Of a stretch of DNA of 64,000 nt, positions 11,409 to 41,527 are shown in pieces. The translations under genes and the position numbers were made by a program. Positions within the stretch are counted from its first letter, which is position 1, and the number at the start of each line of letters is the position of its first letter. The notes under the pieces were generated by a model that saw only the letters and a program-made list of their open reading frames with translations, was not told the DNA's origin and did not search any database. The stretch spans positions 1 through 64,000 of the forward strand of contig JAAILG010000381.1 of assembly GCA_012026655.1 (NCBI GenBank), in the 5' to 3' direction. The stretch is from Hydrolagus affinis. Lineage: Eukaryota.

Positions 11409-11424
11409 TTTATTTCCTAGTGAC

Positions 11425-12521: not shown

Positions 12522-12766
12522 CAGGCCTTCTCAGAGGTTCAGGCCACTTCCAACATTTCAGGCCCCTGGCCATATATGGAGGCCCCTGGCCAGATCCTCT
12601 CCCCCTCTAAACTGAGAGTGTGTGGGTCACATTTTGGTTCGAAAGGGTGGCACATACAAACAATAAGTCGTGAAACCTAACAAATACCAAAAAAAATTAA
12701 CAAGTGTCTAAATTTGAGGCACCTCTTTGAGCTTAAAGCCCAGGCCAAATGGCCCTCCTGGCCCTG
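12522..12766. mobile_element. hAT-like MITE
   Basis: Ends CAGGCC..GGCCCTG, 8-bp TSD ataataac / ttaataac, internal ggcccctggcca repeats. Confidence 0.55.
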
Positions 12767-14761: not shown

Positions 14762-15080
14762 TGGGGGCGTGGGGGGGGGGGGGGCGTGGGGGCAAACTTC
14801 CGGGTGGGTGAGAAATGAAGGTGAAGTTACACAACTGGTTCTTTCCAACGAGTTGTACAATGACATGAGGAGGAGTGCCCAGGCTGGTTTGCAGTTGTGC
14901 TCACTCCTTTGTTGGATAATCTCAGTGACATAAAGCGGTTGCTATGAGGATATACCGCAGAGGGACCCAGATTCCGCATACTGTATTACCTGCCAAATAG
15001 GGTACGGCCAAACACATGACCCACACAAACAGAACAAGTGGGTGATAACCCCTTCACTGCCAAACTCTTGACTTCACAGA
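14762..15080 (+). promoter_or_regulatory. Inverted copy of the 41.3-41.5 kb element, 5' of TTLL10-B, preceded by GC boxes
   Basis: 14794-15018 is the reverse complement of 41303-41527 with ~4 mismatches. Two GGGGCGTGG boxes at 14762-14792, ACTTCCGG at 14796-14803, GTTGCTATG at 14938-14946. Confidence 0.6.
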
Positions 15081-17114
15081 ATTCTATGAATGTTCGGGTG
15101 GGGGGTGGGGGGTCTCCGCCATTTGTCTAACACACGCACGGAAAATCACCTCCTTACTTAAGAATGTCTCCTGACGGCCTCGCAAAGGTGGCCATGGCTT
15201 GCCCATCGTTGCTCTTGGCTGACACTCCGATGCAATGCTGGAGGGTGTGAAGAACGATTGGAGATGGACAGTGAAGAGCCCCGGCACTTTTGTTTGTCGG
15301 CAAAACGCTCAGTTATTGTATATCCTTGGGACGTGGAAAGCGCTCTGCGAATGTAATTTTGTTATCGCTGTTGTAACCTGCAGAAAGTGCTCTGACGTGT
15401 CCTGATGTGAAAAGAGCTATCTTCAAATGCAAGAGTGCGAGAGCCGGGGGGAGCTTTGACAAGCACGATACCGAGATTGCAATAAGGAGGGAGTTCGATT
15501 GAGGGGAAAAGCAGATCAATAATCGCGGGAATCAATATCGCGACATCCATTCTCCACGGCTTGAATATCCACGTTCAAAGCATGTGATTCAGACATATAG
15601 TCTGTAAAAACAAATTATATATTTTCCACTTAAACCAGATTGATTTTTTTTTAAAAAAATACAAGAACCAGAAAGTACAGTGTTGAGTGTAGAGAAGCTG
15701 AATTATTTGTAGATTATGTGTAAAATGGAGACCTTGTGGATTCCTATCAGATAGTGGTTAACCTGTCCGGGTGCGATGCCCTCATCATGGCCAAAGGTCA
15801 AATCTTCCTTTGAAGGACAGTTACTTCTTGAAGTTCATGATCCGCTGGCAATACTAGTGTATTGTGCACAATAGGCAGTAACAGGCTTCCCTGACTTGAT
15901 TCTCTGCCGTTGTTTGAATCTCTATTCTCTGTACTTTGCGGCTCCGTTAAGACTCAGATACGATTACACAGGCTTAACAAGAACTTTAACGTTGTTTATA
16001 GGTGTGATTTATTCGTCAATTGCTCCATTTCTAGTTAGTACACTGTGCCAGATGATTAGGATTACATACACATGCGCTCAATTGTCATAGAAACAACCAT
16101 TCAGCCCAAGTAGTCCCTGCCTTGGTTATACCCCATACATCACAAGATCACGAGAATGATTCAGATGAAGCGAGGCCCTTTAGCCCATCTGATTTCATCC
16201 CTCCAAAACTCCCATCCTACCGTCCACAGTATGGCATCAAGTTGCTTTTTCAACGGCTTCCAGTGTTTTGATGTTAAAGGAGCTATTGTTGGGTTAGTGT
16301 TATTATGACCACAATAGTGTACCCGTTTAAAAGAACAGCTTTACTCTGCAATAGGAGGACGGGTTGGGGAAGTGATTCTGGAAAGGCAAGATCAAAAGAA
16401 CTGAAGGAATTTCTTCATCCCAACCTCTCTCTCTCTCTCTCTCTCGTGATCTTGTGATGAACCCTTTGACGTGGTATTCTTGCCACTAGATGCAAGGTTA
16501 TGGCTTGATGAGTTTTAGGTTTTCTTTCCACCACTGCCTGCCATCTTTGAAAGCAAATCGCATCGCAAAACCAACACAAAACCCGTGGCCATCAATCAAA
16601 TGAACTTCATAAGGTCTGACTTCATACAGCATTGTTTACATTTGCTACAACGATGTTAATCTTAATTTTGACCCTGAAACCAATGGCTCCTTTGATTAAC
16701 AGCTGCAGTATTTTTTCTTCACATGGCTTTGACATCGAATTTTAAATAAGGTTCTTAACTCTTAATTCAGTCGTTCCACATATTAACCAGAGGTCGTGGT
16801 GGGTCGGATGGAATGACACACACACACGCGCGCGAAAATGAAGTGCTGTTAACATACACTGTTGTATTCTGTACAGTGTTTGTGCCAATGGTTCAGGCTC
16901 CAGACACTGGTGTCTGAGTCGCGAGGGGGGAACTTGCGTTTTTGTAGCACTTCACCATGTTTGAAACATCTCAAAACGTTTTCACACAGTAATGACAATT
17001 GCAGCAGCCAATTCACTTCTCTTTTTGAATCGTGCCGCGAGATCTCCACTTGAACCAGCAGACGAAATCTCAGTGTAACCTCTCACCCAAAAGGACGTCA
17101 CCTCTAAGAGTGCA

Positions 17115-17155
17115 AACAAACAAACAAACAACAACAACAACAACAACAACAACAA
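17115..17155. repeat. (CAAA)n(CAA)n microsatellite (LINE/SINE tail)
   Basis: Direct reading. Confidence 0.9.
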
Positions 17156-17554
17156 AATGACATTTCTATAGCACCTTTCATGTCGGGAGGACTTCCCAGT
17201 CTTGAGAAACCCATCCCAGCCTAGACAAAAACAGAAATGGCTGGGAACACTCAGCAGGTCAGGCAGCATCTGTGGAGAAAGGAAAAGTGAGTTTCGGGGC
17301 CTAGTGGCTGAAAGCGCTGCTAGGGTTAGGTCTTGAAAGATGTCACCCACAACGATCCAGCTCTATTACCACACTGGAATGTTGGTGGAGATTGGGATTT
17401 TAACTGGTGGGATTTGAACCTATTGTCAGCTGACCCCGAATCTAAAGTATTAACTGACACCAACTGACAAGTTAGCAGATAGTCAAGGGTCAACCCTTAT
17501 TATTTATTGACTGTTACATTATCTGTTCAAGTGCAAATGTCTATCGTGTACACA

Positions 17555-17706
17555 CAGCGGCTTCCAACCTTTGAATAGTGGCTAACTCAGCAACGTTTTC
17601 GTTGCGCTCTCCCTCCTTCACACTCGACTCCGCACACTCGGGTCCTCCACCCCTCCACTGGTGACCGACCCCAAGTGAGGCTCGCCCTACAGTTTGGAAA
17701 CCACTG
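17555..17706. mobile_element. hAT (Charlie/MER5-like) MITE
   Basis: TIRs CAGCGGCTTCCAA / TTGGAAACCACTG; gtgtacac on both flanks (offset by 1 nt on the left). Confidence 0.6.
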
Positions 17707-19187
17707 GTGTACACGTACATAGGATTACAGAAGGTTACAGCATGGAAACGAGCCAATTGGCCCAACTAGATCCTGCTGCTATTTATACTCCACACAAGTC
17801 CCCTCTCTTCCCAATCCCCTCTCCTACACCAATCTATTTCCTTCTTCTTAATCAAGTTTCCTGTTAATTACACTGATGCTTTGAACGCATTTCTACAATT
17901 GTAATGCTATAACACGTAAGTGCTTTGTAAGTTAAAGTTACCATCCTTAGAAAAGTTGTGGCACTTGCCCATTAAATCCCCTCTATCTTGGGAAATGCAG
18001 TATGCTGTGATTTGATAATGGTGACAGATCATATTGTACTCCAAATATATATATATATCTCCATTTCCTGATGCGGGCCAGCATTCGCCCATAAAATATA
18101 CAGTCACTACACTTTGCAGAATATTCTGTGAAGCACTTTGAGACATCTGGAAAGACGTGATAAGGTGCTGTATCAAATGCAAGGATTCTTCTTATTATAT
18201 TCAAATACAGTAGAGGTTATGGGTGCTGTGAGGAAGCCTAATTTGAACAACATTGGTTTGTGGTGGAATTTTAACACCAAACGTATGAAGAAAAGACTGT
18301 CATTGATTTGGGAAAGTTGAGTCCATTTCAATGGCTTGGTCTCTCACTCTCAGTGGATGTGTTCCATCCAGAAAGATTGATGGGATTGTTGCCCTGTGTC
18401 AAGTAAGTCACAAAGAGCTGCACCGAGCTTTCAGTAGTAAAATCCATATTATTCCCCAGTAACTGAGAATAAAAGTTGAATTACATCCAAAAATTCTGCT
18501 GTGAAGACAGACTTCAGGCTATGAAATGACAGTGGCACCCCAAATTTAACGGATCCTCCAGCATGGAAATTACACAAAGGAATCCTGTCTTACTAGCTAT
18601 CCTGATATTTTGTCTGCGTTGGATTCGAATTCCAAAAATTCCAATTACCTTTCCATAATCCTTGCATTTGATACAGAGCCTTTTCATGTCGTCGAGACAT
18701 CTCCCAGCGCGTCACAGGATTACACTGGTAAAGTGTGGTGACTGTATATTATTTGTGGGCAAAATGCGTTCCATGGTTTCCCCCCACTCCCTTACCCCCC
18801 CCCCACCCCCTACCCCCCCACCGCTCTTAATCCAAACCCCAGCTCGGGTGCAAACTCTCAACTCTCCAGCACTTTGGGGCATCCAAAAAGGCGCTGTACA
18901 GTTGATTGCGACTTGTTGCTGCTGTCGTGGTTTCGTTCACACATAGTCTTTTCTCATAAGATACGTACGTCGCGTAAAAGCTGGCAAGTGCTATTGAATT
19001 TATAACTACAGTACAAAACGCTATCTACATAACAGCAAAGATTGCCTTTTCTGTGGTTCTGCCAACTGGCTGCTGCGCTTTGTGGGACTCTTTAAAAAAC
19101 AAAAGGGAACAATGCACCATAGCAACGGTTACTCAATGAGCCATAACACACTACGGGGCGATCTCTCTCTCTATCTTTCTCTGTGAC

Positions 19188-19258
19188 ACCTCCCCACCCC
19201 ACCCACCCACCCCCCACCCCCCCCCCTCCCCCACCCCCACCCCTCCCCACCCCCTCCA
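19188..19258. repeat. C-rich low-complexity tract (G-quadruplex-capable on the minus strand)
   Basis: Many runs of 3 or more C. Confidence 0.8.
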
Positions 19259-20509: not shown

Positions 20510-23500
20510 ATGGCTTCAGACGACGATGGTTATTTTTCCAATATAAACGAGTTCCAAAACAATTTCCTATGCAGTATTTCACCAATCCCGGCAGTTTCCT
20601 CTCACAGGTTCTCAGGTGAGTGATTCGACTCAGTTCCAAGGGTTGGAATCCTTTTGGCAGGACCCCACGTGTTTAGAGAAACACACGTGTCTCTCTCTCT
20701 CTCTCTCTCTCTCAGTGAGAGAGAACAATAAAGTGAATCTGAAACTGTAAGAAGTTCAGTCATTTGGCAGAAGATATCAGAGATTCATCCATTCTGATCA
20801 AACAGGCCTTATACTGTACTAAGATAATATTAATCTTTGCATTTGATAGAGCGCTTTTTCATGTCTTCAAGACGTCTCAAAGCCCTTCACGGAATACACT
20901 GTAAAGTGAATTGACTGTATATATTTGTGGGCGAAATGCGGCAGCCAATCGTGCCCAGCGGCGTCCCCCACAAACAGTCGTGGATTGAGGTGACCATAAA
21001 GTGTGTTTTTTTGGGTTAAAAAGTGTCCTTTTAACAAAAGACTGTTCAATCTTCTGTTTAAAAGTGAGCCCAATGTGACAGATATCTTCTCATGTTATAA
21101 AATGTGGGATAATGTTGATAACGCAAATAACTTCCGACTTAAAAACAGATCGAACAGGGAACAATGTCAAACTAAAGGATTCCAGGCGAAAGAGAACGGA
21201 TGATCGGCGAGACAAGGGGCTTTTTTTCTACGTTGAAAGCTCAAACGAGGCTGACTTGTACGTACAAACGTAAAGCTTTCTGTGGTAATAAGTTGCTAAA
21301 ATGTTGCTCGTGACGTCCTTCAATAAAAGATGGTTTGAGACATTCGAAAATGTACCATGAGCAAATCAGAAGTTATTGTGTCATTTCAGGTTTGTATCTG
21401 AGATTCACGACGAAACTTTTAAACGTCGCACGTTACGACTCTTGCGTGCCACGTTCTGCCCACAAAGTACACTTTAATATCCACGTTATATTAATATTAA
21501 TCCTTGCATCTGACAAGCGCTTTTCACGTCTCCCAGATGTCTCAAACCGCTTTACAGAACATACTGTGTATATGTGGGCGAAACACGGCAACCGTTTGTG
21601 CAATTGTGGATTGAAATGACTAAAAAAAAATTGGGGGATTATTATTAGGCGTGTGGAGTAAGGAAAATTGCCCAAGGTGTCGCACCTGACCTGGAATTGA
21701 ATTTAGGTCTCTCGCTTGTAACGCAAGTGCTCTAACCACTGAGCTACTGGACTCCACAAATTGCAAAACGCTTCAAACAATTCAACCATTCACACCAAAA
21801 CTTCATTCCATCGGCCACAACACAAGATCTTATACTTTACAATATATTCTGTCATTTGAGATGTCTTAAGCGAAGCAATAAGGTGCTATATCAAATTAAA
21901 GGTTTAATATTCTTCTTATTATTATCATCATCATTTTGGAAGCCTACCAAATATTGTCACAAACCAACAGACTTATTGTCTCTCTGTTTGAGCTCGTTTA
22001 GGGCAACAAAAAGGATTGAAAGCAGAACTCTGATCACCTGCGGGACTTCCATGTGATATTACGTGAACTCTATGTAACATTATATGAACTGTATTCACTC
22101 AATAGATTTATTGTTCTCGCGTCAAAATATTAAATAACGATGTAAGAAGACAAGTTGCACACAGTAGGGATGGAGCTTCAATTTTTATAATCTGGTTGAT
22201 ACGCATTATTATATATGGAGCTTAAAAGCCCTTATCAGTTAAAGTAACATGTTGAAATATCACATTATTTCTTTTTTTGAATACAGAATTTACAACTACT
22301 GTGTGAACAGGGAATGGAAGCGAATCATAGACAATATCAGACTGAACTACATATTAAAAGGTAAAACAGAAATAACTCCATTCCGCACTGTTAATGTGTT
22401 TCTGCACTACATTGGATTCAACACTTACCTCTTTGACTGCACCCACTCCCTAACCTCTCCAGCTGCTAACTAGCCCCCACCCTGGCTCGGGCATCCACTC
22501 TGAGACAAAGCTCTCTGAGATACCCTCCTGACGCCCAAGATATTATATAAATGTAAATTAAATAATATAAATGTAAAGATATATAAATGTCAATTGTAAA
22601 GCAATGTGGATATTGCTGCCTTGATGTTTGTGACTTTCTTAAATCCAATTTGTTGATCTTTTTGATGGAAGCTATCAAACTAGCAGAGTGAGGATGAAAG
22701 ACTTTCTGCACTTTATTTCTCTGGCTTCTGTCTTTGAACAGGTAAGCAGACTTTATACCATATTCCTAACAACAGGTTCCTGACCACCAAAGTTGGCCTC
22801 TGCACTTCGCTCAAGGATCAAGAGCGGAGAAGCAACAGATACATAAAGTTCAGATGTTCCACGTAAGGACACTTGTACAGTATTATGTTTAGACTGTGAT
22901 ATAGACTATATGCCACTACCCTTAATTGACATACCAGCCATTGGTTACACCTGAACTAAGCAGTTGCCAAATGTGCTGCTACAGTTACCAAATGTGCTGT
23001 GACTTCCAAACGGGAAGGGAATCAATCTTCTTATTCGCGGAAACCAAACAGATCGAGGAGAAATAACAGTTCGAGAAGAGATGAGAGACCCCAAAATTTT
23101 CTCATGGTCTCTTAATGACTCAATGTTGAAGATGACGTGAATTTTTAGAAGCAAAAGAAAACATTTCTGCTTCTCTCCACCAGGCTGCTGAAACTGGATG
23201 AATTCTATCCTGAGACGTACCGCATGGATGTGGCGAAAGAGCGGTTAACTTTCTTTGAGGTCTTCAAAGGTATTTATTCTCTTCCTTTTGTCTGTCATCA
23301 AAGGCCAGTTTGTGGTATGATTGAAATCTAGACTTGTTAGTGTCAATCCGGGTGTTGTTAGACGCAAAGTAACGGATTGTTAACAACCGTGTAGGATGCG
23401 TGGTTGATGATATCTTTATGAAACAATGGGGGCGAAAGTGTTGATAAGCAACGCTCTTGTTAACAGCTCCACCATCTAAACTGTATTTCATTATCATAAA

Positions 23501-26500
23501 TCATAACCCTTACCTTTGAGAACATCCTGTGAATCGCTTTGAGGCGTCTCAAGATGTTGTAGTTATTGTCTTAACCCGATAAGGCGCTATATCAAACGCA
23601 AGGATTGTTCTAATTAGTATTATTATAAACACCGATGAGAGTATTACCTCATCGCCCATTCCTGACTGTGGCTCCCTGTGCTTGTCTCTAACGTAGACGG
23701 ACAGATTTGGATTTGCAAACCCGCCGAATCGAGCTTGGGCCGAGGGATCTTTCTTCTGCGGAATCGCAATGATGTCGCCGCCTTCCGCAGTAAACTGGAG
23801 AGCGTGGAAAAAATTCCTCAACACAGACTGTGCTTCTACAATGCGCCCATTCACAGAATAGTACAGAGGTACGTGGAAAGAACCGAAACAGAAATTAAAT
23901 TGCTGATTATGTACAGCAACAGGACTGGAGGGATACCAGGGAAGGACTGACGCGTCGTGAGTCAAAGCTCTGGCAACATGTCGCAGCTGGACATAATATC
24001 AAGATGATCATCCTTGTATCATTTGACACAGAGCCTTATCACGTTGTTGAGACGTCTCAAAGCACTTTACAGAATACACTGTAAAGTGAATTGCCTGAGT
24101 GTTTTCTTGGCGAAACAGGCAGAAAATTAGAAACGTATGGTCTGTCCAGCGCCACGGACAGATCCAGAGGAGTAAAAAATGTCCCTGACTGTGTCTCCCA
24201 ATGTACACTTGCAGTTTTATTAAAATGTCCTTTTTCCTCAAAAAGGTACATTCACAACCCTCTGCTACTGGATGGTAGAAAGTTTGACGTCCGCTCCTAC
24301 TTCCTGATTGCCTGCACCTCACCCCATGTGACCTTCTTTCACCACGGTTATGTCAAGGTGACGTGTAACCAATATCACCCAAATTCGGATGATCTGACAG
24401 GCCACTTAACCAACCAGGTAGGCTGAATATTAAACCATCGGTCACTCGCTTCAAGGCTATATTAAAATCCCGCGAAGCGCTTTGAGACATCCCAATGACA
24501 CTGTAAAATGCAAGGATTACAGTATTATTATAATACTAATAATCCTTGCATTTGATATAGAGCTTTTCACGTCTTCTAGACGTCCCAAAGCGTTTCACAG
24601 AAAACACTGTAAAGTGAATTGACTGCACGTTTGTGGGCGAAACGCGGCAGCCAATTGCGCACAGCAGTGTCCCACAAACAGTCGTGGAATGAAAGGACCA
24701 TTTTATTATTTTTTTTGTTGGAGGGATTATTATTAGGCGCACGTGTGGAGTAAGGAAACTTGCCCAAGGTTTCGCCCTGACCTGCCTGGATTCGAACACA
24801 GGTCTCACGCTTGTAAGAGCTCCACAACAACTCCCAAACCAAATGAGTCATTCAATCCATAGCTTATAATTGGTAACAAGTAAAAGTGTAAAGTTGAGGG
24901 TTTGGACCACATCAAGGCCATCTATAAAGGAAGGAATGGATGATAACGAGGTCAGGGAGATAGATGTGCGCCTGTGTTGGCCAGTGTGTAAATCCAGCTG
25001 GTGTACTGGTGTGGGCAGGTGCTCATTAGCTGTGTAACCTGCGTGAGGGGATAAAAATACGCAGCTCAGCAGATGTTGCCGATGTTTTTCTCAATCCCAT
25101 GTGTTTCATCCATCTCTGGTGTGTATAAGCCAAATCTACCTGCATTTTAACCCCTTCGCAGCACAGAAGTCTTGTTTTTCCATCGTCATTCCCCGAACGT
25201 ACGGCCGAAAGAACAAACTTATTTTCACAGCACCTTTATTGTGCTAAATTGGATCCCAAGCGGTCTTCTACGGGTGAATGTCACTGTCGAGCGTAGTGAC
25301 TGCTTTGTAAGGAAACAAAGCAGCCGTTTGCAGCAACAAGCAACAACAAACTTACACTGATAGAGTGAGCGCCTTTCACGTCGGGAGGACGTCCCAAGGC
25401 GCTGAATTTTGCAGATTTTTTTGGCCAAGATATATAGAGAAAAACTCCCTTTCAACAAGTGTCTGCAGCATCATCTTATCAAATGCCTTTTGAAAATACA
25501 TATTCACAAGACGACGGCGTTTGGTTTCCAACAATAAACCAAATGCATATGATGTAATGCCTTTATATTACAAAAACATCTAAAAGCACTTCACAGCTAA
25601 TTGCTAAATACTCCTCCTTCTGACTCACAAAGCTTCTGACTAGCTTTTAAATGTTCAATTTTTCACAGATGTCTGCAATGTCTAAAATATACCACCTGCT
25701 GCCCCCTTCCCTCTCTCTTTTCCTGGGAAGCATATTTTTAATCCACTAATTGCAGCCTTGTGTCTTTTCTCCCTCAGTTCGTGCAGAAAAAGAACCCAAA
25801 TTACAATGAGGTGATGGAGGAAACAATCTGGTCCATGGAGCGGTTAAATAACTACATTAATGACAGGTTTAGGATAGCAAAGGCTCTCCCGAAGGACTGG
25901 GTCTTCACTATGTTTGAGGTAAGGGAGTGATCCTGCTTTTCACACTGGCTCCAATTGACACAAGGGTCTTCTCAGGGCTTTTACTAAAGTAATCCTTGCA
26001 TTTGATCTAGCGCTTTTCACATCTTCTAGATGTCTCAAAGCGCTTCACGGCATATACTGTAAAGTGAATTGACTGTATATTTGTGGGCGAAACGCGGCAG
26101 CCAATTGCGCACAGCAGCGTCCCCACAAACAGTTGTGGATTGAAACGGCCAATTTTTTTGGGAGGGATTATTATTGGGTGTGAGGAGTAAGGAAACTTGC
26201 CCAAGGTTTTGTCTTGCCGTGAATTGAACCCAGGTCTCTCTCGCTTGCGAGGTGAGTGCTCTAACCACTGATTTACAGGACTCCAGGAATCATACTACCA
26301 GTGGAGCTCCTGTGGCTCAGTGGTTAGAACACTTGTCTTGCAAGCTGGGGAGACCAAGCTGGGGAGACCTGTGTTCGAATCCAGGCAGGTCAGGGCGAAA
26401 CCTTGGGCAAGTTTCCTTACTCCACACGCCTAATAATAATCCCTACAAAAAAACCACAATAATAAAATTGGTCATTTCAATCCACGACTGTGTGTGGGAC

Positions 26501-29500
26501 ACTGCTGTGTGCAATTGGCTGCCGCGATTCACCCACAAATATATACAGTCTATTCACTTTACAGTATATTCTGTGAAGCGCTTTGGGACATTGATAAGAT
26601 GTGGAAAGCGCTATATCAAATGCAAGGATTATTATTATTATTATTTTAGATGATTCGGGCACACCCTAGCTAGTGACGGCACAGAGTTGTAGTGTTTATC
26701 ATGATGACATTTTTGATCACCTGGAACGTTAGATAACTTAGTTGAGTATCTAATAACCAGGCGTTTTTCAGGAGGTTGTTTAAGAAAATAATTTTAAAAA
26801 CGACTTCAAAGACTGGACATTCTAAATTACCCCCACAATGGAGTCAGTCAGGGCAAACTATCTCCCCATTCTTGTCAAATGCTTTACTCAGTATCTTGTC
26901 AGCTCCTTAAACAGCCAGCTCATGACCAAGTACATGAGGCTGCTTAACAAATACCAATGAAAAAGAGATGCTTCAAGGTTTTAATTCAAGGAGGGATATG
27001 TGAATGAACAGCCATCTAATAAGGGTGCAAGCATCTCAAAAGGTTTCTGATTATTAATAAATCCAAGACATCTTTTTTATTATGTTAATTTAAAAACACA
27101 TTTTTGTTCCGTATAACTCTTAGTTTAAGTCCCCACCTGGAATATATCATCATCTTGGATTCCAGATAAACCCTTGTGAAATTTAAAGTTTGGGGAAAGA
27201 CCTGGGGAATGGACGAGAGAAAACTCCAGTGGGAGGGTTGGCAAAGAGCAGAAACAATTGTCTGAATGGTCTCCTTCTCCACTACATATTCTATAATTCG
27301 ATGCCCATTTTAAACACATCATTTAAAGCTTTATCAATTTTCTTGCAGAGGAGGATGCAACAGATCATGAGGCAATGCTTCATCTCTGCTAAGAGCAGAC
27401 TGGAATGTAAACTGGGCTACTTTGATCTTCTGGGCTGTGACTTTATAGTTGATCAAAATTTCAAGGTGATGTGCAGTTATTTGTATTCTTTTTATTTCCT
27501 GTGTTTGTGTTAAGTCAGAGATGACAATTCCATTGACTTGTTGCGATCACTAATCTTGCTGCTGCCAACGGCATGGACTGGCCACCAGCAAAAGTCCAAA
27601 CGTAAAATGAACTCCACCAAAAAAAGTGATTGACATACATGAAGGAACAATTCCCCAGTCCATTTAAACACAACACAGGCAGCAGATGTAACACAGCACT
27701 AGTTCAGCCATGATTGATTTGGATGGCATTAATGCATGCAAAACACTACACAGGCCCAGACAATGCACACTCTTGTCGTATCGTTGAATGGGGGGGAGAG
27801 AGAGAGTGGTAATGAATTGGAAACGAAACCCTCTCGTGTTTCAGTAAATGGCCGCTCGCTGTATCAGTGTCTACCTCGCACAGTGACTAATCCCACAGTA
27901 CAATGAGCCATCTGATCGCCTCTCATTCAAACATCCTTTATGATTAATTAAAGGACTTTGTTGCCCAGTTTGTTTTCTGACAAGAGAGGTTTTTTTTTAC
28001 ATAAAGGGTTGAAATTGTTCAAATATTTGATTTACAATGTGCCTTCATAGACATAATCAATATGTGAGAGAAAACACAACTTGGTTCCAATTTTAATAAG
28101 CTTACAATAATAATCCTTGCATTTGATGTCATGACGACCAACCCTCTCAAAGCATTTTCGCTGCAGAGTATGACTGTGTATTTGTAGGCAAGCGCGATTA
28201 CCAATAATCTGAATACAGCAAAGACCTACAAACAAGGAAGTAAATGACAAATTTTGTCCGGGGGATAGTTGGCTAGGACACCGGGAGAATGACTGGCCTT
28301 TTCGCAGTGGTTACCACATTCGCTATTTGCAAACCCTTTCGACAATCTTTGCAATGAGATGTCAGAGCATGGGTTGGTCTGAATCGCTTTGCAGAATATT
28401 GAAGTGCATCAGTAATCTTCTAATGTCCACAGCTAACGGATAACTTTGTGTAATTCCCATTTGTGAGCCACTGTTTGTGCGGGTTAGCTGCATGTTTTGT
28501 AGGCGAAGAAAGAGGTTCGTGTCTCTCAGTTACTGGTCACGGGGAGAGGAGGTGACTGTTGAGATCGCTGTGGAAGATTGCCTTTACTCAATAAAATTAG
28601 GGTCTCCATGACCTTGCAGCGAAGATCCTGGCAGGTGGATCCTAAACTGGGATTTATTTACAGCCTAATTTACTATCGCATCAGTCGGGAGATCAGCCAG
28701 AATTTGTGCTTTCACTGCTGGAAAAGTGAGGCGGGTGGAGAAAATTTAGAAAGTTGATAGGATTTGTCTGCAGTGATCACCAAATTAAAAAAAGGATGAG
28801 ATATCCAGTAGATTTATTGGTGGGAATGTTTTACCTGTTGTCATGGTGGCTAAGGCCAAACAGAACTGGTTAGAATGATTTGCTTAATGTCAACATGCGA
28901 TTGTATGTGTAATGTTTGGATTAATAAATCTGCAATCTGAGAAAAGCCAGTAGACTTATTGGCTATATCGACTTAAATCGTCAGAATCATCCTGGCAATG
29001 ATATTGCAGTTTAATAACAACAACTTGCATTTATATAGCGCCTTCCACGCTGGGCGGCGTCTCAGAGCCCTTTGCAATGGCGGAGCCTGAGGCCGGGCCA
29101 GGGGGAGGGGGGAAAGTGACCGTAAGCGTGGTCGGTCGAAGAGAAAGGTCTTCAGGTGTGACCTGGAGATGGGGAAAGAGGAGCGAGGTGAGGGGGTTGA
29201 GGGAAGGAGTTCTAAAGGTTGTGGAGCGGAGGATGCGGGGTGACAAGGAGGAGGTCAGACCCAGTAGAGGCAGAAGGTTCTGCTGTGAAGAGAGAGGAGG
29301 TTAGAGAGGTCAGGGGGGATGCAGAGGAGTGGAGGGATTTGAACACAAGAGTGAAGATCCTGAAGTTGATCCACTCTGTGACAAGAAGCCAGTCATGTTT
29401 GGTTAATACCTAACCAACCATTCAGCCACTGAACAGTACTGCACAGGAGTCAATACAAATAATTAGTTTGTTGTTGTCCTTTCACTTATATAAATCATCC

Positions 29501-32218
29501 AATGGTTATTTAATTTATCACACTCACAAAGTGGAGTCCTGTAGCTCAGTGGTTAGAGTACTCGCCTTCCTTACAAGTGAGAGGCCTGGGTTTGATTCCA
29601 GGCAGATCAGGGTGAAACCTTGGCCAATTTCCTTACTCCATAGGCCTGATAATAATAATCCCTCAAAAAATGAACAATAATAGATTGATCATTTCAATCC
29701 TCGACTGTTTGTGGGGACGCTGCTGTGTGCAAACGTTGCCACCTTTCGTCCACATATATACAGTCAATTCATTTTACAGTATATTCTGTGAGATGTCTAG
29801 AAGATGTGAAAAGCGCTATATCAAACGCAAGGATTATTATTATTAAATTGTTTTTTTTTGTTCTTAGCTTAGAAAGTTTGAGATGCATTGGCCTAAAGCC
29901 ACTGTCTGTTTTTAGCACTAAGCTACAAAGAGCTGAAGGTTACAGAATCCAGGTGTGATGAGGTAGGTGTTGTGGTGCTATAATTGGCATCAGTCCACCT
30001 GGGTGAGGAAGGGAAAAATCTGGTAGAATCATTTGTTGTGATCCCTCCTGTTCAGTGACCTAAGGGCATACATGTGGGACATTGGATGTAAGGGCATGTG
30101 ACCTGGCTCTGTGTTGACGCTGGCATCGCAGGTGAAGCATTAAAACACTCCAAATTGTTGCAAGTCTGAAATTGCTATCGCACTCGCTTCAAAATAAAAC
30201 TTTTAGAAAATCATGAAGAGGGTCACCATCCGAAAGGTCGGTAGAATTCTTTCTGACCCTTGAGACGGCTTCCCGGCTGCCATATCTATTTGCCAAATCT
30301 CCTCACATTAAGGACCTGGATTAAGCAGCTGGAGGTGAATACGGCTGGTACGTGACATTGGGCTTGCTACTCAAGAACATTCAAGGTAGCTGGCACGTCA
30401 CAAGCTGTCCTGCAGAGGTCCTCCTCATGTGCTGAAAGCAGCTAAAATGAAAGTGAGTGCGATGAAAGAGGGGGATTTTAGATGGGATTTAGTCAGAGGT
30501 GCAGAGGGAGGGAGCGAGGTTACGGACATAGCAGTAGAAAATGGAGCAGAGGAGTGGATGAACACACTGCAGGCTCCAGCAGAAGGAGTGAAGGAAGAGT
30601 TGAGGTCGGAAAAGAATCACTGAATAATGGAGGTTCCTGGGCAAGAAGGGATTTATAGGTGAGGATACAGATCTTGAAGTTGATCCTTAGGGAGACAGTG
30701 GATCTTAGTGGAGCTTAGCTTCAGGTGAGCTATTTCAGTCGCACAAAGTCATCGAGGCGAAGGGAGAGAATCCAACCCAAAGGCTTGAGGCATCATCCAG
30801 ACATGAGGGGTTATATAAATACAATTTGTTGTTGTTGTTAATCAGTAATCCGTTGCATTTAATATAGTGCTTTTCGCATCAGGTGGACATCTCAAAGCGC
30901 TTCACAGGATCTATTGTAAAATCACGTGATTTACTGTAAAGAAATAAAACGTGTATTTTGTAGGGAAATGCAGTGTGCTGTTCTTTAAGGTTCTGCACTG
31001 ACAACAACAACAACAAAATTACATTTGTAGAGCGCCTTTCACGCCGGGAGGACTTCCGTGGATAAGTTTGTGCAAAAGAAACTGGGAGAAACATTTGAAC
31101 TTTAAAAAACCCACCGTAAATATCATAGTAGTTCTGCACCATCTGGTGGACGTTTAAAGCATTGACGTGTGAAAAGGAGTGCTGAGTTTCCGTATCCAAG
31201 ATTATGCAAAATTGGATCACTCACATTCAGGGCTATTTGAGAGAAAATGTTGTGTACAAACTGGCTGCGCTGTGTTCACCAACAAATAACAGTCACCACA
31301 CTTTGCGGGAAATTCCTGTGGAGTGCTTTGAGATGTGTCGGTAAAATAAATGGCTATTTTTTTCTTTAGGATGGTAAAACCGTTTTTGCGCATCCATCCA
31401 AACCAAACGCGGCTTCACAGAGAACCACTTTAATACCATTTTATATCTTCTGTGGGTCCTAAACTGGGAATGAGGAAAAAATACACTGAAAAAGTGTTTG
31501 ACAGGAATGCAATTGATCTATTTCAGGTCTGGTTACTTGAGATGAACAGTAGCCCATCTCTGGAGAGACACTGCGAGGTTCTCAAAAATGTCATCCCCAG
31601 TTTGGTTACTGAAGCTCTCGGTAAGATAGCCCATTTTCACCCTCGAGTTATCACAAAAAGACATTCGTGGTAAGGGCGGGTTTTCAGACATACGAAATGA
31701 ACACCCTTCTGTCACTTGGCAATTCTGCTTGTTTTAACAGTGGCTCTATTTTATTATTAGATATAGTCATTGAGATATTCATCAAAAGCGGACAAGCGCT
31801 ACCCATCCTGCCACTTCAGTCACAAAAGAAGTTCATCCTGCTCTATCACACTTGCTTCCTGGATTTGAACCTCAAGTCGATCACAAAGTCGAGGGCGGAG
31901 AATCTCTTCTTGGAAAAGATACCACACATCAGCCATTCTGACTTTTCAGCGACGAATCCGAAGAGGCTGGAGCCGTCCGCAAGCTTTGCTCGCACCCTAA
32001 CCAAATTAGCTCAGAGATCGTTTCACTCGCAGCGGCAGCTGCCAGAGATTAAAGAGGGACGGAAGCGACACTCTGCCAAACCTAAATCTAGCCAGGATGT
32101 AGCAACCACTCAAGGTGCTTTGATTGAATGTAAACCCAGTACGGCATCGAAGGCTTCTAAAGCCCACTCAAAATTGACTCCAAGATCGCCTCGTAAATCA
32201 TCATCAGCTAAGGCTTAG
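20510..32218 (+). CDS. ttll10: Tubulin polyglycylase TTLL10 paralog B (11 coding exons, 549 aa, divergent)
   Basis: Exons 20510-20615 (tentative; GATATGG Kozak, MASDDDG.., AG|GTGAGT), 21149-21257, 22287-22360, 22742-22862, 23184-23269, 23697-23868, 24246-24417, 25778-25918, 27349-27465, 31527-31620 (VWLLEMNSSP), 31761-32218. They total 1650 nt in one open frame. Six internal exons have the same lengths as copy A (121, 86, 172, 172, 141, 117 nt). Confidence 0.92.
21497..21757 (-). mobile_element. tRNA-derived SINE (internally deleted)
   Basis: Family tail and head both present. Confidence 0.8.
24535..24823 (-). mobile_element. tRNA-derived SINE
   Basis: Family sequence with the head partly deleted. 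Confidence 0.8.
25989..26285 (-). mobile_element. tRNA-derived SINE (left member of a head-to-head pair)
   Basis: Family sequence ending ..tttacaggactcca. Confidence 0.85.
26302..26645 (+). mobile_element. tRNA-derived SINE (right member of a head-to-head pair)
   Basis: tggagctcctgtggctcagtggttaga..gcaaggattattattattatt. Confidence 0.85.
27684..27951 (+). other. Conserved intronic block in TTLL10-B (paralog of 436-712)
   Basis: Contains long identical runs with the reverse complement of 436-712, e.g. cctcgcacagtgactaatcccacagtacaatgagccatctgatcgcctctcattcaaaca. Confidence 0.85.
29531..29845 (+). mobile_element. tRNA-derived SINE
   Basis: gtggagtcctgtagctcagtggttagag..aaggattattattatt. Confidence 0.85.
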
Positions 32219-33281: not shown

Positions 33282-34034
33282 CCTGCTGACAATAACAGTT
33301 TATTTTGGTCTGCCGAATGTCTGACACATGCGAAGCCCAGCACCATGCTTAAGGTCTAAACCATCATTGCCAAACTAGGCTAGGAGATGCACATGCGTAT
33401 GCTACCAACGCATGAAAATGTTCCTATATCTGGAATAGGATTGGCATTCTCTCACACATGATGGCCAAATTGCCTTCTGTGCTGTAAATTTCGAAATATA
33501 GTACTTCAATACTTCGGGAGAAGTATTTCCAGAAACTTTGCAGGTGCACAAGGCTTGGTGGACCCTAGAGTACGTGTTGCGAGTTTACTCACACGGCCTG
33601 CCGTTGAGAACACGGTCTGGCAAGCTTCCTGATTCTTGTTCAGGTGAGACCACTCCATCCATTTGGCCTTTGGTTTGGTGGAATACAGGAGCCACGAGGT
33701 AAGAATCCCAGTTTAAAAAAATAAAGAATTAAGCAAATCACAGAAAGAATTAAACATAAGAGAAAATCTCTTTCCCCAGAAAGTGGTTTTGTTGAGGAAT
33801 TATGCGCCACAAATCATTGTTGGAAGTAATATAGAGGTACCTGTTCTGGCTGTAAACCCTGAAAACAAATGGTGAATGTATGTTGAAACTGAAGAACATT
33901 TGCAACAGAAATTATGAATGAATGAAAGAAGTATACAAGTGAACTGGGGTGGATTGTATTTGAAATATTGTCAATACAAACAAACTAAATTATGAACTGG
34001 TCCAGTTACACCCAAACTGTGTATTGCTATTTGC

Positions 34035-37000
34035 TTACAGCACAAACAGATAAACTGCCAGAAGCTCCAGGGCAAAGGCTAGGAACAATGGGCAAAAAAT
34101 ATAGAGCAATTCATGTTGCAGAAATCTGACCGCAAACACATTTGAATTGCTTGCACCCATGGTTGAAGAGCTTTCTAGCTGACAGGTTTGTGAAGCCTGG
34201 TTCTGTCCTACATTCTCATCCCCTTTTTCCAATTCTCTTACCTCTGACCTGGTAAGGTTTGCCTCATTGTTTGCTCTTAATTTACATTTCATACATTGGG
34301 TTGATTCCTCAGTGTCGACTTTTGAATAAATGACACGTATGACTGCTTTACCTGGGCTACCTGCACCATCATTATCTTTCATTGAGACAATATCAGAGAC
34401 AGAGTTCAATGTTTTCTCTGACTCCTCAATTCCAGTCCCCTTCACTTCCTTCTCTGTCTGTTTGGGGGTTTGGGGACTCACTTTTGTGGGATTATTCTGA
34501 GCAAGCACAGTACTGTCTAATGATTCTTCATTAGAAGAATGAAGTGTGGCACTCTGCAGTGTGTCTTCCATTGAGTCTGAGGTTGGTTGGGAAGTAGAGT
34601 CAGTTGTTTGGAATGTCTCTGTACTTTCCTGAACATTAATCAATATCTGTTTGGGAATCATGGATTTCGGTGCATGTGTGGAAGTTGGTTTGTCGTGGTC
34701 GGGTGACTCCGCTTCGGTGCCTTTCAATGTTACATCTGCTTCTTTATCCTCAGTGTCATCCTCCAAGGCGAAGATCGACCATTTGCTGGGAATGTACTTT
34801 AGCAAAGAATCCCACTTATGCTCTCCGCAGTGGCTGCCAAGCCAAAAAAAAAGACACTGACAAAAGATACAGCAACAGAACCAAAATCAACGCACTGGTA
34901 TCCATTTCATTTTACAACCCGCAGTTAATTCACAGATGATCTAGCGATGAACCAGGTTCTGAGTTTGCTTTCTCAATCCCTGGGGGAGGGGGGGTGGGGG
35001 GGCAACTCATCTGTCCCAGGGGATTTCAGCCTTTTGAGCCCAACCAGAAATAAATAGGACTTTGCCAAACAGTCAGAAGGAACGGGGATGGGGGATGAGT
35101 GTGGCTGCAGAAGGAACATGTTTGACCTGCTTCTTATATTATAATCTACAAGTGAGCAAATATTTTGGAAAAACCTTTATAAATCTTGCAGGTGGTTTGT
35201 GCACCCACCTGTTTTACAAATGACAAGGATTGGTCATTTTATTTTGTCCCATTTCCCCCTCCCTCCCTCCCTCCTCACACACACACAATGCAAACAACTG
35301 CTATTATCTGGCAACAGCTGTGACCTAGACAAAGGTAATTATACATTCCTACACCAGTCACCTGCTGTGAAGAAGATTAAAGAGATCTCAAAAATGTACA
35401 ATTTGAACAGTAAAGGATCAACTTAGTCGACTCACGGCCTAACAAAGGATCACTTCTATTAATAAATATGTAACTCAAAAGCTGTAACTTTTGGCTGCAT
35501 TGCAAATTCTCTCTCTTCTGGTCACAGAAATGAAGAGCAATTGTACTTGAATCCTGTGTAAGCACGATTACTACCGTTACAAGGTAATCAGGGAGCAAAG
35601 CAAACTGTGATACAGGGGAACTGAACAGACTGTGGAAGAGAAAACAAAATGCATGACCACCATGTAAATGTGAGGAAAAGCACCTGTGAGAGACACTCCT
35701 TTGTGAGATGGGAATCCCTGTACCTCAAACTGACCTGTGACACTGGCCCTGAACCAAGATCTCCTGAAGCTGAAGTCTTACTCATCACTCTTTCCTGAAA
35801 GGGTCAAACACTTACTTTCAGAGAAGAAAGCGGTGGTGGTGAGGGGCAGGGGGAGGGTGGTGGAGAGGGCAGGGAGTGCTAACCAAATCCATGGTAACAA
35901 CACAATTTGCTTTCTTTTTGATTCAATATCCGTGTCTATGAAACACGTCATCCGGTGAAGGCAAAAAAAGTAAAAGTTAGTCGATGGGGATGACAAAATA
36001 TAAGCCATCGTTTGAATGACAAAGTTATATTTAAAAATCCCCCACTGGTGCAAATTTGCTTCACAATCATTTAAGGAAATTTCTGTTTCCTGGCACCGGA
36101 ACTGATGAACGCACGTGAAATAGTACGGATGGTGGGTGGGGACGCAGAGGAATATGGAAAACTACAATACATGCAAATTTGCCGGTGGATGTATTCAATG
36201 CTCCGTACCTATAATTTACTACTTGCGTAGATCGGACGGTCAGTCTCCCTCGTGTCTCAGTTGGTAACACCACTGGCTACGTATGGAGAGACTAGAGAAT
36301 CCCAGCAATGTAGTTGACCTCAGCAGTAGGTGGATATAACACAACCATCAACATTGTACTAATGATCTTTTCGTTAGGTGACAATACTAAGGTTTAGGGG
36401 TGCTAAGATGATAAGGGATTTCAAATTTAATTTACCTATTAAAAAAAAGTTTGGTCGCCTTAGCAATTTGCACAAGATAAATCTGAATGAATCCAACCAG
36501 AGACTGTTTGAGAGAAAATGGAGGCTGAACACACAAAACAAAATCTCAATGCAGCAATAATAGCTGGGCGATTGAGCAATTGTCTGAGCAACCGGTTGTT
36601 CAAAGCTTCGGAAAGATTAGGAAGACATCTGGCAACCACCCTGAAGTTGACCAGTTAGAACACGTGTACGCCATTGTTTTATACATACTCAGTAAAACAA
36701 GAAAGTTAAACCATTGCACTTACCTCATACAGTTTCCTTGCAGCCATGTGTCAATCGATTTGAAGTGAAATTCCATATTCTCATAAAGCGGGGAGACAAA
36801 CTTATAGGAATCAAAAATCTGCACCTTGCCATTCCTCGGCCGAGCACCGAGCGTCTTCTCTCCATCTCCAAACCAGATCTCAACGTGCACAATGTTGTGG
36901 AGCTGCAATTTGGCTGTCAACAATCGAGAAAAGCTTGGGTTTGACAAAAATTACAAAGTGTGAATAGGCCAGACATTGGACATTCAATGGCATAACTGGC

Positions 37001-39780
37001 TGAAACAAACACACTGCCAAAAACGGGCAGTTTGACCCGACTAGTTAAATAATAATCTGTGTTATAATCCTTCACATCTTATCAACGTCTCAAAGCGCTT
37101 CACACAGCGCTTTGAGACGTTGATAAGATGTAAAGTGAATTGACTGTAGATTTGTGGGCGAAACACTGCAGCCAATCGCGCACAGCTGCGTCCCCACAAA
37201 CAGTCGTGGATTGAAATGACCAATTTTATTATTGTGGGTTTTTTGGGGAGATGGATTATTATTAGGCGTGTTTGTGAAGTAAGGAAATTTGCCTAAGGTT
37301 TCGTCCTCACCTGCCTGCATTAGAAACACAGGTCTCATGCTTGTAAGGCAAGTGCTCTAACCACTGAGCTACAGTAGCTCCACATACTTATTGGGCAAAA
37401 GCAGCAACTGTCTGATATGTACTTCAAGTCTGCAATTATGTAGTTGATTTGTAATTAAGGAGAGCTTGTCTTTGTGACTGTCTCATTCTCTATTAGATGA
37501 CTACTTCTAAGATTTTTCTAACCCAGGTAGAATATTTAAAACAACTAGTTCAACATCCCAATGTTGGGGATTGAACCCCCAAACATTCTGTTTCAGATGC
37601 AAGAGTTCTACCAACTGAACTGGGCTGAATGAATGACCAAAACATGAATGACCAAGCCAAAATGTATGCTTAAATAAGTATTCATCATAGCACTAGTCGT
37701 ACCTTTGGGGTTCAACTTTTTGCCTGAGACAAAGACAAGGTCCCCTGGCTCCATAGTCTCCTGTGTCCTTATGTTCGGGAGTGTGTCATACATGTAACTC
37801 TTGTTCCCATGAATAATAAATCCAAAGTCATCCCTCAGGTCTCGTACAACTCTCCTCACCAGCCCACCGCCATCCCGAAACAAAGGTGTTTTGTCTTCCG
37901 GAGCTAGGAAATAGTTAGTAGGAAAATGGCAATGTCACACTAAATCAGATCATATTATTGCAAAGCAACCTTAATTCACTTTGCGTCAGAGTGATTTCTG
38001 GCACTGGTAGAACAATGTTGATAATGATGAATCCCAATATGAAAAAGATCACACTGTGTACGGTCCAGAACAATCTGCGGTTCAATCCCTGATCAGTGTT
38101 GAGTTTGCTGATCTGAGTTAAGAACATTGAGTATGTGTGTTAATGTTACGTGATGACAGGATTGGATGTGATCATGCTTCAGACAGGCAAGAGTCTTGGT
38201 GAAACTCACTGTCTAACCTGACAAATGAGAACAGATACTTGACTGAGATATAGATTTGCTACTGCTCTCGGAATCATAGGTAGCGTGTGAGTCTAAGAAA
38301 TCCATTGACAAACACCCCGATTATTAAATTCCGCAAGCCATACTGATAGTGATCAAACAGGCGAATTGAATGATATAAAAGTATGACATACTGTATATGC
38401 TGGATTTGTACAGTCATTCTGAATTAAGCATAGAAACATAGGAACAGGAGTAGGCCATTCAGCCCTTCGAGCCTGTTCCGCCATTTAATTAGATTATGAC
38501 TGATCTGTATCTCTACTAATCCTTTTAATTCCAATTTCCCGCTTTCTCCACGTATCCCTTAACACCCTGACCTACCAAAAATTTATCAAGCTGACTCTTG
38601 AAGGTGTGGATGGATCTAGAATCGGGAGAGAAACTTCCAGATTTCTACCAACCCTTTGAGTAAAAAAAAATGCTTCCTGATTTCTATGTCCCCTTGCTTT
38701 GCATTCCACCACCAAAAAAAGTAGCTTTTCTGATAAGCAATTCTATCCGAGTGACGTCAAGCACACAATGAAGTCTGGCCATTTTTGCTTACTCACTTCC
38801 TGGTTGGTAGGACTTCTGTGCATATGGCACACCGATGTAATTCTTTGCTTGTTCGATGAATTTTCGCCGCAGTTCCCATTGCTGAACTGTGTTTGTCACC
38901 TGGTGGGGCTTTGTACTTATCACTGAAGCATCGTGCAGTTCCTCCTGCAGTGGGCACAAGGTCGAGAGAATTACTTTAACAGGTTCAATAAATCCACTAT
39001 TTTATTAGTTGACGTTTTATATAACGTTCATCGAACATTCATTATTCTCTTGCCCTTAAGCTTCTGAATCTGGTTTTCTTGCGAGCTATGACTTATTCCA
39101 CCTCATTGTTGAGATGGTTGAGATTGCAGTCACTAAACTCCCTTCCAAAATATCTTTGCCTTATTTCTTCTCTACCTGCCTACAAAACCCTTTTAATTAC
39201 CTTCCACCGACTGATAGAAATCTGGAAAACTATGCTTTGAGACGCAGCTCTACATGTTCCAGAACACTAGAACCTCCCATTTCTTTTAGACGAGGGCATG
39301 GGTTGTTTAAAATGACAATTTGCACTTATAATGGCTCACTTTATGTGGGACTTTGGTTTTAATGTTTCATCCAAGGGTATGGCACCTCCTTCAATAGAGA
39401 ACTCCCCCAGTACTGCACTAGATTGGTAACCTGGACTGGGGCTCAACTCCCAGTTTGGCCTTGAGGCAAGAGCGCTGTTAACTGAGTAAAGCTGACACTT
39501 GACGTAGTTTCTTGGAGTAACCCAAAATAAATGAGGAAACCACAGGGTGGAAAACGCAACACGTGAAACTGATGGCTGAATGCTGTGTGCTGGAAATTGT
39601 GCAATTTCACTACTACAATTTGCTGGCACCATCTCAGAGATCAGCCCATGTTCTCGGAAGACACGCATTACAAGCAGCGATAACAAAGATGGTGACGTGA
39701 GGAGGCAGGTTCGCATTTTTCACTGAAGTGACATAATCACCTCATGTGCTGCTTCCTCCATCAGAATCATAGTTTTACGG
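34035..39780 (-). CDS. Uncharacterised NlpC/P60 (papain-like) domain protein, catalytic Cys position replaced by Gly; acidic linker; possible hydrophobic C-terminal tail (455 aa as modelled)
   Basis: Phase-consistent GT-AG exons: 39751-39780 (MILMEEAAHE, tentative start), 38797-38944 (..LRRKFIEQAKNYIGVPYAQK), 37703-37903 (PLFRDGGGLVRRV..MEPGDLVFVSG), 36724-36913 (HNIVHVEIWFGDGEKTLGAR..KSIDTWLQGNCM), 34035-34833 (SHCGEHKW.. acidic S/T/E-rich ..LLYIFCPLFLAFALELLAVYLFVL*). Total 1368 nt, open. The motif order GxPY / D-C-x-G / GDLVF / HV-x-I matches NlpC/P60. Confidence 0.82.
37064..37382 (-). mobile_element. tRNA-derived SINE with internal inverted duplication
   Basis: Family sequence; palindrome at 37074-37131. 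Confidence 0.8.
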
Positions 39781-41234
39781 GTTGTTTCAGGTCGAGCATA
39801 ACTTGTTGCAGTACTACGTTACTGAAATTATTATCAAAGGTACTGTTAAATTGACTCCAATAAAGGTTAAATTTACAGTGAACTTTACAATGGGGCGATT
39901 GTGGAGTCCGGTTAGGCAGCAGTAATATGTCTATTTAAGGAATTTTGTTCAATGATACTCCACTACACGCAGTGCCACCTACTGAGCTAAACTGACATCA
40001 TCAGAGTTCTTTAACATACAAACCACAAAAGAGTGTCAGATGCGGAACACCGGCCCGACTGTCTTTTCGTTACAACATTGGTGTCCTGGCCTCAACTAAT
40101 CACTGGTATAACAGCGAGAGGTGTATAGCTAGTTGGAAGCACTAACGTTTTTCAGAAGCGCAAGCCGCTGAGATCAGATTTTCAGTGAGTCTCAGCTCTC
40201 AACTAATATTGGGCCGTGCTACAGGCACAAGCTTTGCGCATTTTACAAACCCCAAATGATAGGCAGAGCCACCGAGGACCAAGGTAAAGACTGCTGTTTA
40301 ATGATATTCACACGAACCCTCAATTAGGCAATCAAACTGAAACTTCAAAGTTTCCATCAATGTACTAATCTACAAAGAGTTCAAACTCCACCACACCCAG
40401 CACGACATTTTCTGTTGCTTTGATTTATTTTTTAATCAAACTGGTCTAACTTGTAAAGGTATAATTTCTACAAGAACTCTTCCCGAATGTGTGCTTTGAA
40501 CATGGTGTTTAAAGCTGTAGCGATGCCTGTTTAGGTAAAGATGGTAAAAATCAGACAACACTATTTGAAAGGGAATTTCTTTCTCCCCCTCTGTCCTGGT
40601 CAACAATCTTCTGGACTAATTGGCACTTTGTGGCTGTTTGTGAGATCATCCAATGGACAAACTAGCTGCTGCACTTGCCTTCAGAAAGTTAATACACTTC
40701 TCTGAGCAGAGTTTTGAAATATTTAAATGGTATAAAATGCAACACACATATTATTCAAAAATCAAAGTAACTTATCAACTGGTCACTGGGTGTGCAGGAG
40801 GCAAGTTCCCTTTTCCAACTTTTTTTTCGGTCAGTCGGGTGTTTGATAATGTGGAAACGTCACAACCAAGCTTAATCCATGAGTTTTAATGCAGCCCAAA
40901 TTTAGAGGACGCAATTTTTTCCTTTGGCAAATGTACATGAAGTAAGTTTGACCATATTATTGCAGTTCCCAGTAGTTATGAGCTCACAGGACAAAAATTC
41001 CGGGTTTGTGGCACTTGACTGTAAGTCGAGAAACTCTTGTTGGGACAGAAGAAGGACCTACAAATGTAAGTGGGCAAGTGTGAATAATCTCAGCGCCTGC
41101 ATCCTTTACGTTATTGAGAACCAACACTCATCAAAAAGTGCAGTCAGAATTTATACTTGATTAATATTCCTCAATAAACTGTACTTGGAATCGTTAATTG
41201 AGTATGAACCTATGCAAAGACACCAACCTATTCG

Positions 41235-41527
41235 CTCTGTGAATTCAGCTTGCGGCAGTGAAGGGGTTATCGGCAACTTGTTCCGTTTGTGTAGGTGTTG
41301 GGCATGTGTTTGGCCGTACTCTATTTGGCAGTTAATACAGTATGTGGAATCTGGGTCCCTCTGCGGTATATCCTCATAGCAACCGCTTTATGTCACTGAG
41401 ATTATCCAACAAAGGAGTGAGCACAACTGCAAACCAGCCTGGGCACTCCTCCTCATGTCATTGTACAACTCGTTGGAAAGAACCAGTCGTGTAACTTCAC
41501 CTTCATTTCTCACCCACCCGGAAGTTT
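41235..41527 (-). promoter_or_regulatory. Putative promoter/first exon of the NlpC/P60 gene
   Basis: Lies ~1.5 kb 5' of the first coding exon. Contains an ETS motif CCGGAAGT (41518-41525) and an RFX X-box half-site (CATAGCAAC, ~41375-41383). Duplicated at 14794-15080. Confidence 0.55.

Follow-up and report, generated by a model that had tools for sequence, protein, structure and literature searches.

The DNA analysed here (the window) spans positions 1 to 64,000 of contig JAAILG010000381.1 in the genome assembly GCA_012026655.1 of the chimaera Hydrolagus affinis. It holds two paralogues of the tubulin-modifying gene TTLL10 on opposite strands, TTLL10-A and TTLL10-B, three NlpC/P60-like exons, and a pair of near-identical repeat copies that lie inverted on the one contig, 26 kb apart. 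The left copy points into TTLL10-B and the right copy into the NlpC/P60-like exons. Both evidently represent the 5' end of TTLL10, a gene that was duplicated in inverted orientation long ago, and gene conversion between the two loci probably kept them alike. The coordinates are collected in Table 1.

Table 1. Features of the window; E, expectation value; P0109 to P0112, proteins retrieved in the homology searches.
Feature	Position	Strand	Remark
Left repeat core, points to TTLL10-B	14794..15018	+	221/225 identical to right copy
Right repeat core, upstream of NlpC/P60-like exons	41303..41527	-	~2.4 kb upstream of exon 38944
Decaying extension, left copy	15019..15080	+	51/68 columns identical
Decaying extension, right copy	41236..41302	-	BLAST
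Second paralogous block behind left copy, putative unconverted duplication relic	15551..15743	+	126/195 columns, E 4e-13
Partner of second block, downstream of right copy	40339..40523	-	paired with 15551..15743
Second homogenised non-coding patch, TTLL10-A intron after exon 2263-2147	422..712	-	264/282 identical to 27684-27966
Partner patch, same intron of TTLL10-B	27684..27966	+	264/282 identical to 422-712
TTLL10-A	2147..13485	-	nine coding exons in window, open frame, gene continues past left end
TTLL10-B	20510..32218	+	11 coding exons, 550 codons including stop, no internal stop
Homologue of first coding exon annotated for Callorhinchus milii P0110	14013..14071	-	frameshifted here
Three NlpC/P60-like exons	38944-38797, 37903-37703, 36913-36724	-	DGGGL in place of DCCGL
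Linker and terminal exon, conserved hydrophobic tail then stop	34035..34833	-	tail common to P0111, P0112
Exit point of shark fusions from linker exon	34140..34142	-	reads A/AT, no GT donor
Candidate small phase-1 exon of old fused transcript	33593..33667	-	AG/GT bounds, open frame
ETS/GABP-type word CCGGAAGT	14796..14803, partner 41518-41525	-	predicted site, sequence match
RFX X-box half-site GTTGCTATG	14938..14946, partner 41375-41383	+	no second half
Candidate splice donor facing TTLL10-A, left copy only	14984..14992	-	post-hoc lead, putative

The two cores aligned without gaps, 14794-15018(+) against 41527-41303(-), with mismatches at 14833, 14976, 14989 and 15001 (left-copy numbering) and a longest uninterrupted identity of 142 bp. 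The match extended to 15080/41236 with 272 of 293 columns identical (BLAST, E 3e-121 within the window), and divergence rose stepwise along the repeat, from 1 difference in 182 bases to 3 in 43 and then 17 in 68 columns. This agrees well with the original prediction, which had described an inverted pair of about 225 bp with about four mismatches, weaker similarity up to about 15080/41235, and a gene ahead of each copy. The pair was the longest among 211 inverted pairs detected in the window, and a third copy was found neither by an unmasked self-comparison of the 64 kb (E<=1e-4) nor by a repeat-masked sensitive one (E<=0.05). The 5' edge of the repeat is sharp and lies beside homopolymer runs, and upstream of it no homology between the two copies was detected, with 37/120 and 32/120 controls scoring equally high. 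The single N gap of the window (3284-3466) is more than 11 kb away from either copy.

A non-coding RNA was ruled out for the repeat, as no Rfam match appeared at the gathering threshold or at E<=5 and the predicted folds were no more stable than those of shuffled sequences (z -0.81 and +1.57). A coding exon was likewise ruled out by the lack of any Pfam match across four long frames and of any match of either copy to shark or C. milii proteins. Vector or phage contamination was dismissed since no plasmid or phage match was obtained, and a G-quadruplex motif at 14763 adjoining the left copy was uninformative, being 1 of 20 in the window.

TTLL10-B lies antisense inside the span of the ancestral TTLL10, between the NlpC/P60-like half and TTLL10-A. 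The nine exons that can be paired between the two paralogues have 836 of 1086 bases in common (77%; 152/172, or 88%, in the best exon), and identity in the repeat is clearly higher, as had been predicted. The proteins are 71% identical, the synonymous divergence (dS) is 0.75, and 27 of 84 four-fold sites differ. A search with one TTLL10-B exon returned two proteins among nine candidates, both from C. milii. TTLL10-A of the window was 92% identical to P0110 and TTLL10-B 96% identical to P0109 over the TTL region, and a tree of 17 sequences joined A with P0110 (support 100/98) and B with P0109 (100/100). As both paralogues are present in C. milii and pair by orthology, the duplication is evidently older than the split from the C. 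milii lineage. The TTLL10-B exon 22287-22360(+) has 74 bases where the matching A exon has 119, a difference of 45 bases that keeps the frame; P0109 has the same shortening, which is therefore old. An ATG-bearing first coding exon (13377-13485(-) and 20510-20615(+)) is common to A, B and P0109 and absent from the shark fusion proteins examined, and the comparison suggests an internal TTLL10 start that may be older than the duplication.

Behind both repeat copies, in the same orientation, a second paralogous block follows at +757 bp (left) and +1004 bp (right). Its score of 94 was reached by none of 120 controls (control maximum 31), its identity between the copies is just 65-70%, and the stretch between core and block did not rise above controls (64/120 as high). 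Since such a block stands behind each copy, the repeat copies are evidently the 5' end of the old inverted TTLL10 duplication that C. milii also has, and not a stand-alone insert. The homologue of the first exon of P0110, 14071-14013(-), lies to the left of the left copy at a distance of 0.72 kb and is a unique match, with a frameshift-aware score of 58 against 27 for the next best in the window.

With regard to sequence divergence, the core stands apart from the genes around it. While 221/225 core positions are identical, this holds for 57/84 four-fold sites, and the probability of four differences is 7e-32 if core sites change as fast as four-fold ones, and 5e-14 (four or fewer) if they change at the gene-wide non-synonymous rate. 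As four differences in 225 bp are impossible at the neutral divergence of A and B, either homogenisation by conversion or, less probably, constraint is needed. The original prediction had named both for this purpose. It had also overlooked a second inverted pair, 422-712 / 27684-27966, which is non-coding and 94% identical; other paralogous non-coding patches of A and B are 65-75% alike (BLAST). Because this intronic patch is so similar as well, homogenisation is not promoter-specific.

The origin of the NlpC/P60-like exons became clear from their homologues. With one of these exons as query, two horn shark proteins (2/61 candidates) carried the domain fused to TTL. They map collinearly onto the window, NlpC exons first and TTLL10-A afterwards; these parts share the minus strand, B lies between them on the opposite one, and the window exons are 65-71% identical to those of the horn shark. 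Among 108 homologues of 532-1696 residues (P0001-P0108), from a search that covered long chains rather than short stand-alone forms, 92 hold the TTL family PF03133 in the same chain, from sponges to reptiles, and the NlpC/P60-TTL fusion is thus ancestral. What had been called an NlpC/P60 gene is evidently the ancestral N-terminal (5') half of TTLL10. Instead of two separate genes sharing a promoter, as originally proposed, both repeat copies appear to be TTLL10 5' regions.

The NlpC/P60 fold was recognised in the domain of the shark orthologue with an Atlas feature score of 0.96 and, for its predicted structure, a TM score of 0.55-0.59 to bacterial C40 clusters. With Pfam, the window exon missed the cut-off (E 0.026), and one of four fusions scanned passed it; databases already label some TTLL10 entries NlpC/P60. 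The motif DCCGL is intact in 79/79 homologues in which it was found (of 108). The window unit reads DGGGL and has therefore lost the catalytic cysteine. The N-terminal domain occurs in TTLL10 of sharks, coelacanth, sturgeon, amphibians, reptiles, lamprey and many invertebrates; the coelacanth model P0004 ends in a PH domain, possibly through fusion with a neighbouring gene model. One may speculate that the domain, peptidase-like and joined to a ligase that builds glycine chains, edits the modification. The 58 N-terminal residues of the shark protein had no significant match in the window, where 39761-39741 is a candidate at most for the first coding exon of the NlpC/P60-like unit, and no NlpC remnants were found upstream of TTLL10-B.

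A search with the exon 34833-34035 gave three matches, among them P0111, which is close to the window sequence, and P0112, which is close to the shark fusions. Both end in the same 31-residue C-terminal tail as the window exon (34035-34130(-)), with a hydrophobic stretch of 19 residues whose mean hydropathy is 2.4-2.7. Chance read-through into an intron was ruled out by this conservation, and as the tail is common to P0111 and P0112, the short, probably tail-anchored form is old; it would be an isoform made by read-through of a splice donor. The shark fusions diverge from P0112 just past an S-x-S-G motif, which suggests a G/GT donor at this junction as read from the protein. The window reads A/AT at this point and P0111 also lacks the glycine of the motif, and the C. 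milii models P0109 and P0110, which are annotation models and not transcripts, are without an NlpC part. Given the conserved hydrophobic tail, the missing splice donor and the C. milii models lacking the NlpC part, TTLL10 has probably been split, and its NlpC/P60-like half would now stand alone.

Both repeat copies hold the ETS word CCGGAAGT and the X-box half-site GTTGCTATG, as had been predicted; of the three occurrences of each word in the window, two are those in the repeat. The third half-site lies at 19126, nearer B. No full X-box was present within the repeat, and the full-pattern matches in the window all fall elsewhere; the assignment to RFX follows the X-box consensus pattern. The right copy sits at the ancestral 5' position of TTLL10, where the ancestral promoter should be. 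Judged by position and ETS motif, the copies are probably promoter regions or 5'-untranslated regions (5'-UTRs). The observed/expected ratio (o/e) of CpG was 0.48 in the core and 0.74-0.98 to the right of the left copy, with a window median of 0.46. With a half X-box only and CpG enrichment beside the left copy only, the predicted co-regulation of two genes is so far unsupported. The mismatch at 14989 removes the GT of the candidate A-facing donor in the right copy. GABP sites are described as accompanying two-way transcription in human promoters in the available text of PMC2077898.

Upstream, 10 kb from the repeat, three miR-200-family hairpins follow on the minus strand (51601-51669, 56288-56356 and 58346-58413). 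The remaining one of the three ETS words, at 58420, adjoins the first hairpin. Mouse Ttll10 has been called the host gene of miR-200b/a/429 (PMC5356520, available part). Elsewhere in the window, a tRNA-Ala-derived family of short interspersed nuclear elements (SINEs) has 13-18 copies, e.g., 11072-11408, 13618-13947 and 25990-26645. The head of one (13872-13943) was called tRNA by ARAGORN, and the region 25990-26631 holds two copies that lie close together in inverted orientation.

Taken together, we consider it rather probable that the repeat is a paralogous promoter/5'-UTR region of TTLL10 whose copies were homogenised by conversion between the loci. The duplication of TTLL10 would have taken place in a holocephalan ancestor, in which the gene comprised a promoter, NlpC/P60-like exons, a linker and TTL exons. 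Copy B would have come to lie in reverse orientation within the original gene, after the linker and before the TTL exons. Copy B would have lost its NlpC exons and kept its 5' region. The original gene would have been split: an NlpC-like unit, ending in a hydrophobic tail of its own, would now be served by the right repeat copy, and TTLL10-A would start at exons immediately to the left of the other copy. The flanks would have diverged to 65-75%, with the first 180-225 bp re-copied between the loci by intrachromosomal gene conversion, and the intronic patch likewise. Nested conversion tracts would give the stepwise decay of identity along the repeat, and patches of differing age in an old inverted duplication are the expected trace of interlocus conversion, in line with the accessible parts of PMC2720389 and PMC1803023. 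The former places most gene conversion within <55 kb, and the repeat copies are 26 kb apart. A steering of recombination to promoters by loss of PRDM9 was considered and dropped, as the C. milii gene is treated as complete in PMC8892340; the portion seen of PMC5519329 reports that no SSXRD domain or testis expression was found for it.

Several points weigh against this interpretation. An identity of ~92% is said to be necessary for efficient conversion (PMC3966225, in part), and the surroundings here reach 65-88%; at such a background, conversion events would be rare, or would have begun when the copies were younger. The homogenised tract begins exactly at the edge of homology. The CpG o/e is 0.58-0.60 at the right copy, with the enrichment lying just beside the left one, and the clade that sets A and B apart from two sharks is supported by just 89/88 in the 17-sequence tree. 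As to the split, the shark exit junction was derived from protein sequence only, and the terminal exon holds other in-frame donors (34352: 7/9 consensus positions) that make a fused transcript possible. The candidate exon 33667-33593 keeps the phase needed to reach TTLL10-A; its similarity to the shark linker was not significant. Finally, if the core changed as slowly as the non-synonymous sites of the best-conserved exon (rate 0.038), four or fewer differences would have a marginal probability of 0.068.

The last value also speaks for very strong purifying selection on both copies, which would then be a duplicated ultraconserved promoter or enhancer with no exchange between them. Such constraint would fit the ETS and half X-box words kept in both copies and the miR-200 cluster 10 kb away, and holocephalan genomes evolve slowly. 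However, every base over 225 bp would need to be held at the level of catalytic-core amino acids, and the probability at the gene-wide non-synonymous rate is far too small for this. As the repeat also has no stable RNA fold and no Rfam or Pfam match, and the intronic patch shows the same pattern, we regard constraint as unlikely. Two insertions of a young transposable element of low to medium copy number would explain the abrupt 5' boundary beside the homopolymer runs, but the copies have neither terminal inverted repeats (5-9/30 matches) nor a target-site duplication (<=2 bases). Two copies in 64 kb also compare poorly with the 13-18 of the local SINE, and both copies, each followed by a second paralogous block, share orientation and position relative to the paralogues, which makes insertion very unlikely. 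As the assembly is a draft and the window contains a gap, the near-identity of the copies could point to mis-joined or collapsed sequence. Such an artefact is highly improbable in view of four substitutions and a graded decay in place of exact identity, the distance to the gap, and the existence of both paralogues in another species.

Inverted low-copy repeats mediate inversions by non-allelic homologous recombination (NAHR), and the copies described here resemble them in being inverted, highly similar and on the same chromosome arm, although they are far shorter (225 bp, with 142 bp perfect). The original prediction had proposed an inversion hinge, and its geometry is right, as a flip would put TTLL10-B in tandem with TTLL10-A. 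Crossovers flipping the 26-kb segment, now or formerly, could themselves homogenise the core, and the inverted orientation and the short distance would suit them. A flip would probably break no gene: if TTLL10 is already split, no reading frame would be interrupted and both units would keep a near-identical core. However, efficient recombination requires >200 bp of identity in mouse and 337-456 bp in human, as quoted in the part seen of PMC3966225, and the perfect run stays below even the ~200-bp threshold, which is a mammalian one. The present order of miR-200, repeat, NlpC half and TTLL10-A is that of the ancestral fused gene, so no past flip is needed, and the intronic patch, homogenised as well, cannot belong to the same hinge. 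A working hinge therefore appears distinctly unlikely, and an active one is so far unsupported.

Gene conversion between nearby paralogues has well-described counterparts. Patchy concerted evolution of BMP8A/B (inverted), DDX19A/B and TUBG1/2 (PMC2720389, in part) likewise concerns old nearby paralogues with segments of >97% identity that include non-coding sequence. In those pairs, the tracts span exons and introns and the upstream regions have diversified, whereas here the presumed 5' end is homogenised and the exons are not. The maintained inverted repeats between homologous gene pairs in Caenorhabditis share with our case that repeat symmetry outlasts divergence; according to the accessible text of PMC1803023, they are long, near-perfect and cover whole intergenic regions, whereas short patches 26-27 kb apart are found here. 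As in GABP-bound bidirectional promoters (PMC2077898, in part), a consensus ETS site lies between the divergent A and B, but here there is no clear CpG island, the coding starts are 7 kb apart, and the site is a predicted one. The fused TTLL10 of sharks, coelacanth, reptiles, amphibians and invertebrates has the same domain, and the order is the same on the minus strand. The chimaera locus differs in the antisense paralogue that interrupts it, the lost catalytic cysteine and the apparently lost fusion donor.

An extended version of the proposed history, which we hold to be doubtful, is that the inverted, promoter-bearing duplicate split chimaera TTLL10 into three units, that conversion couples all three, and that the segment can flip at no cost. 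One unit would be an NlpC/P60-like protein that is anchored in the membrane and has no catalytic activity, and the other two would be TTL enzymes. The inserted promoter copy would work both ways and drive the two enzymes head-to-head, and repeated conversion would keep this copy matched to the original promoter.

A literature search that included few subscription papers found no published account of the NlpC/P60-like domain of TTLL10, of the chimaera duplication or of this locus, and the word "domain" does not occur in the accessible part of a preprint on TTLL10 biochemistry (10.1101/2024.03.31.587457). The repeat would be a further case of patchy conversion between nearby inverted paralogues, here favouring a presumed promoter over exons. 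Its context is weightier than the repeat itself, as it would mark a datable gene fission. The locus furthermore exposed that TTLL10 of many animals has at its N-terminus an NlpC/P60-like domain whose cysteine is invariant, and that cartilaginous fishes have a short, probably tail-anchored TTLL10 form. If the three-unit version were true, chimaeras would offer a natural test of the role of this domain, which TTLL10 carries outside mammals and which appears to be undescribed.

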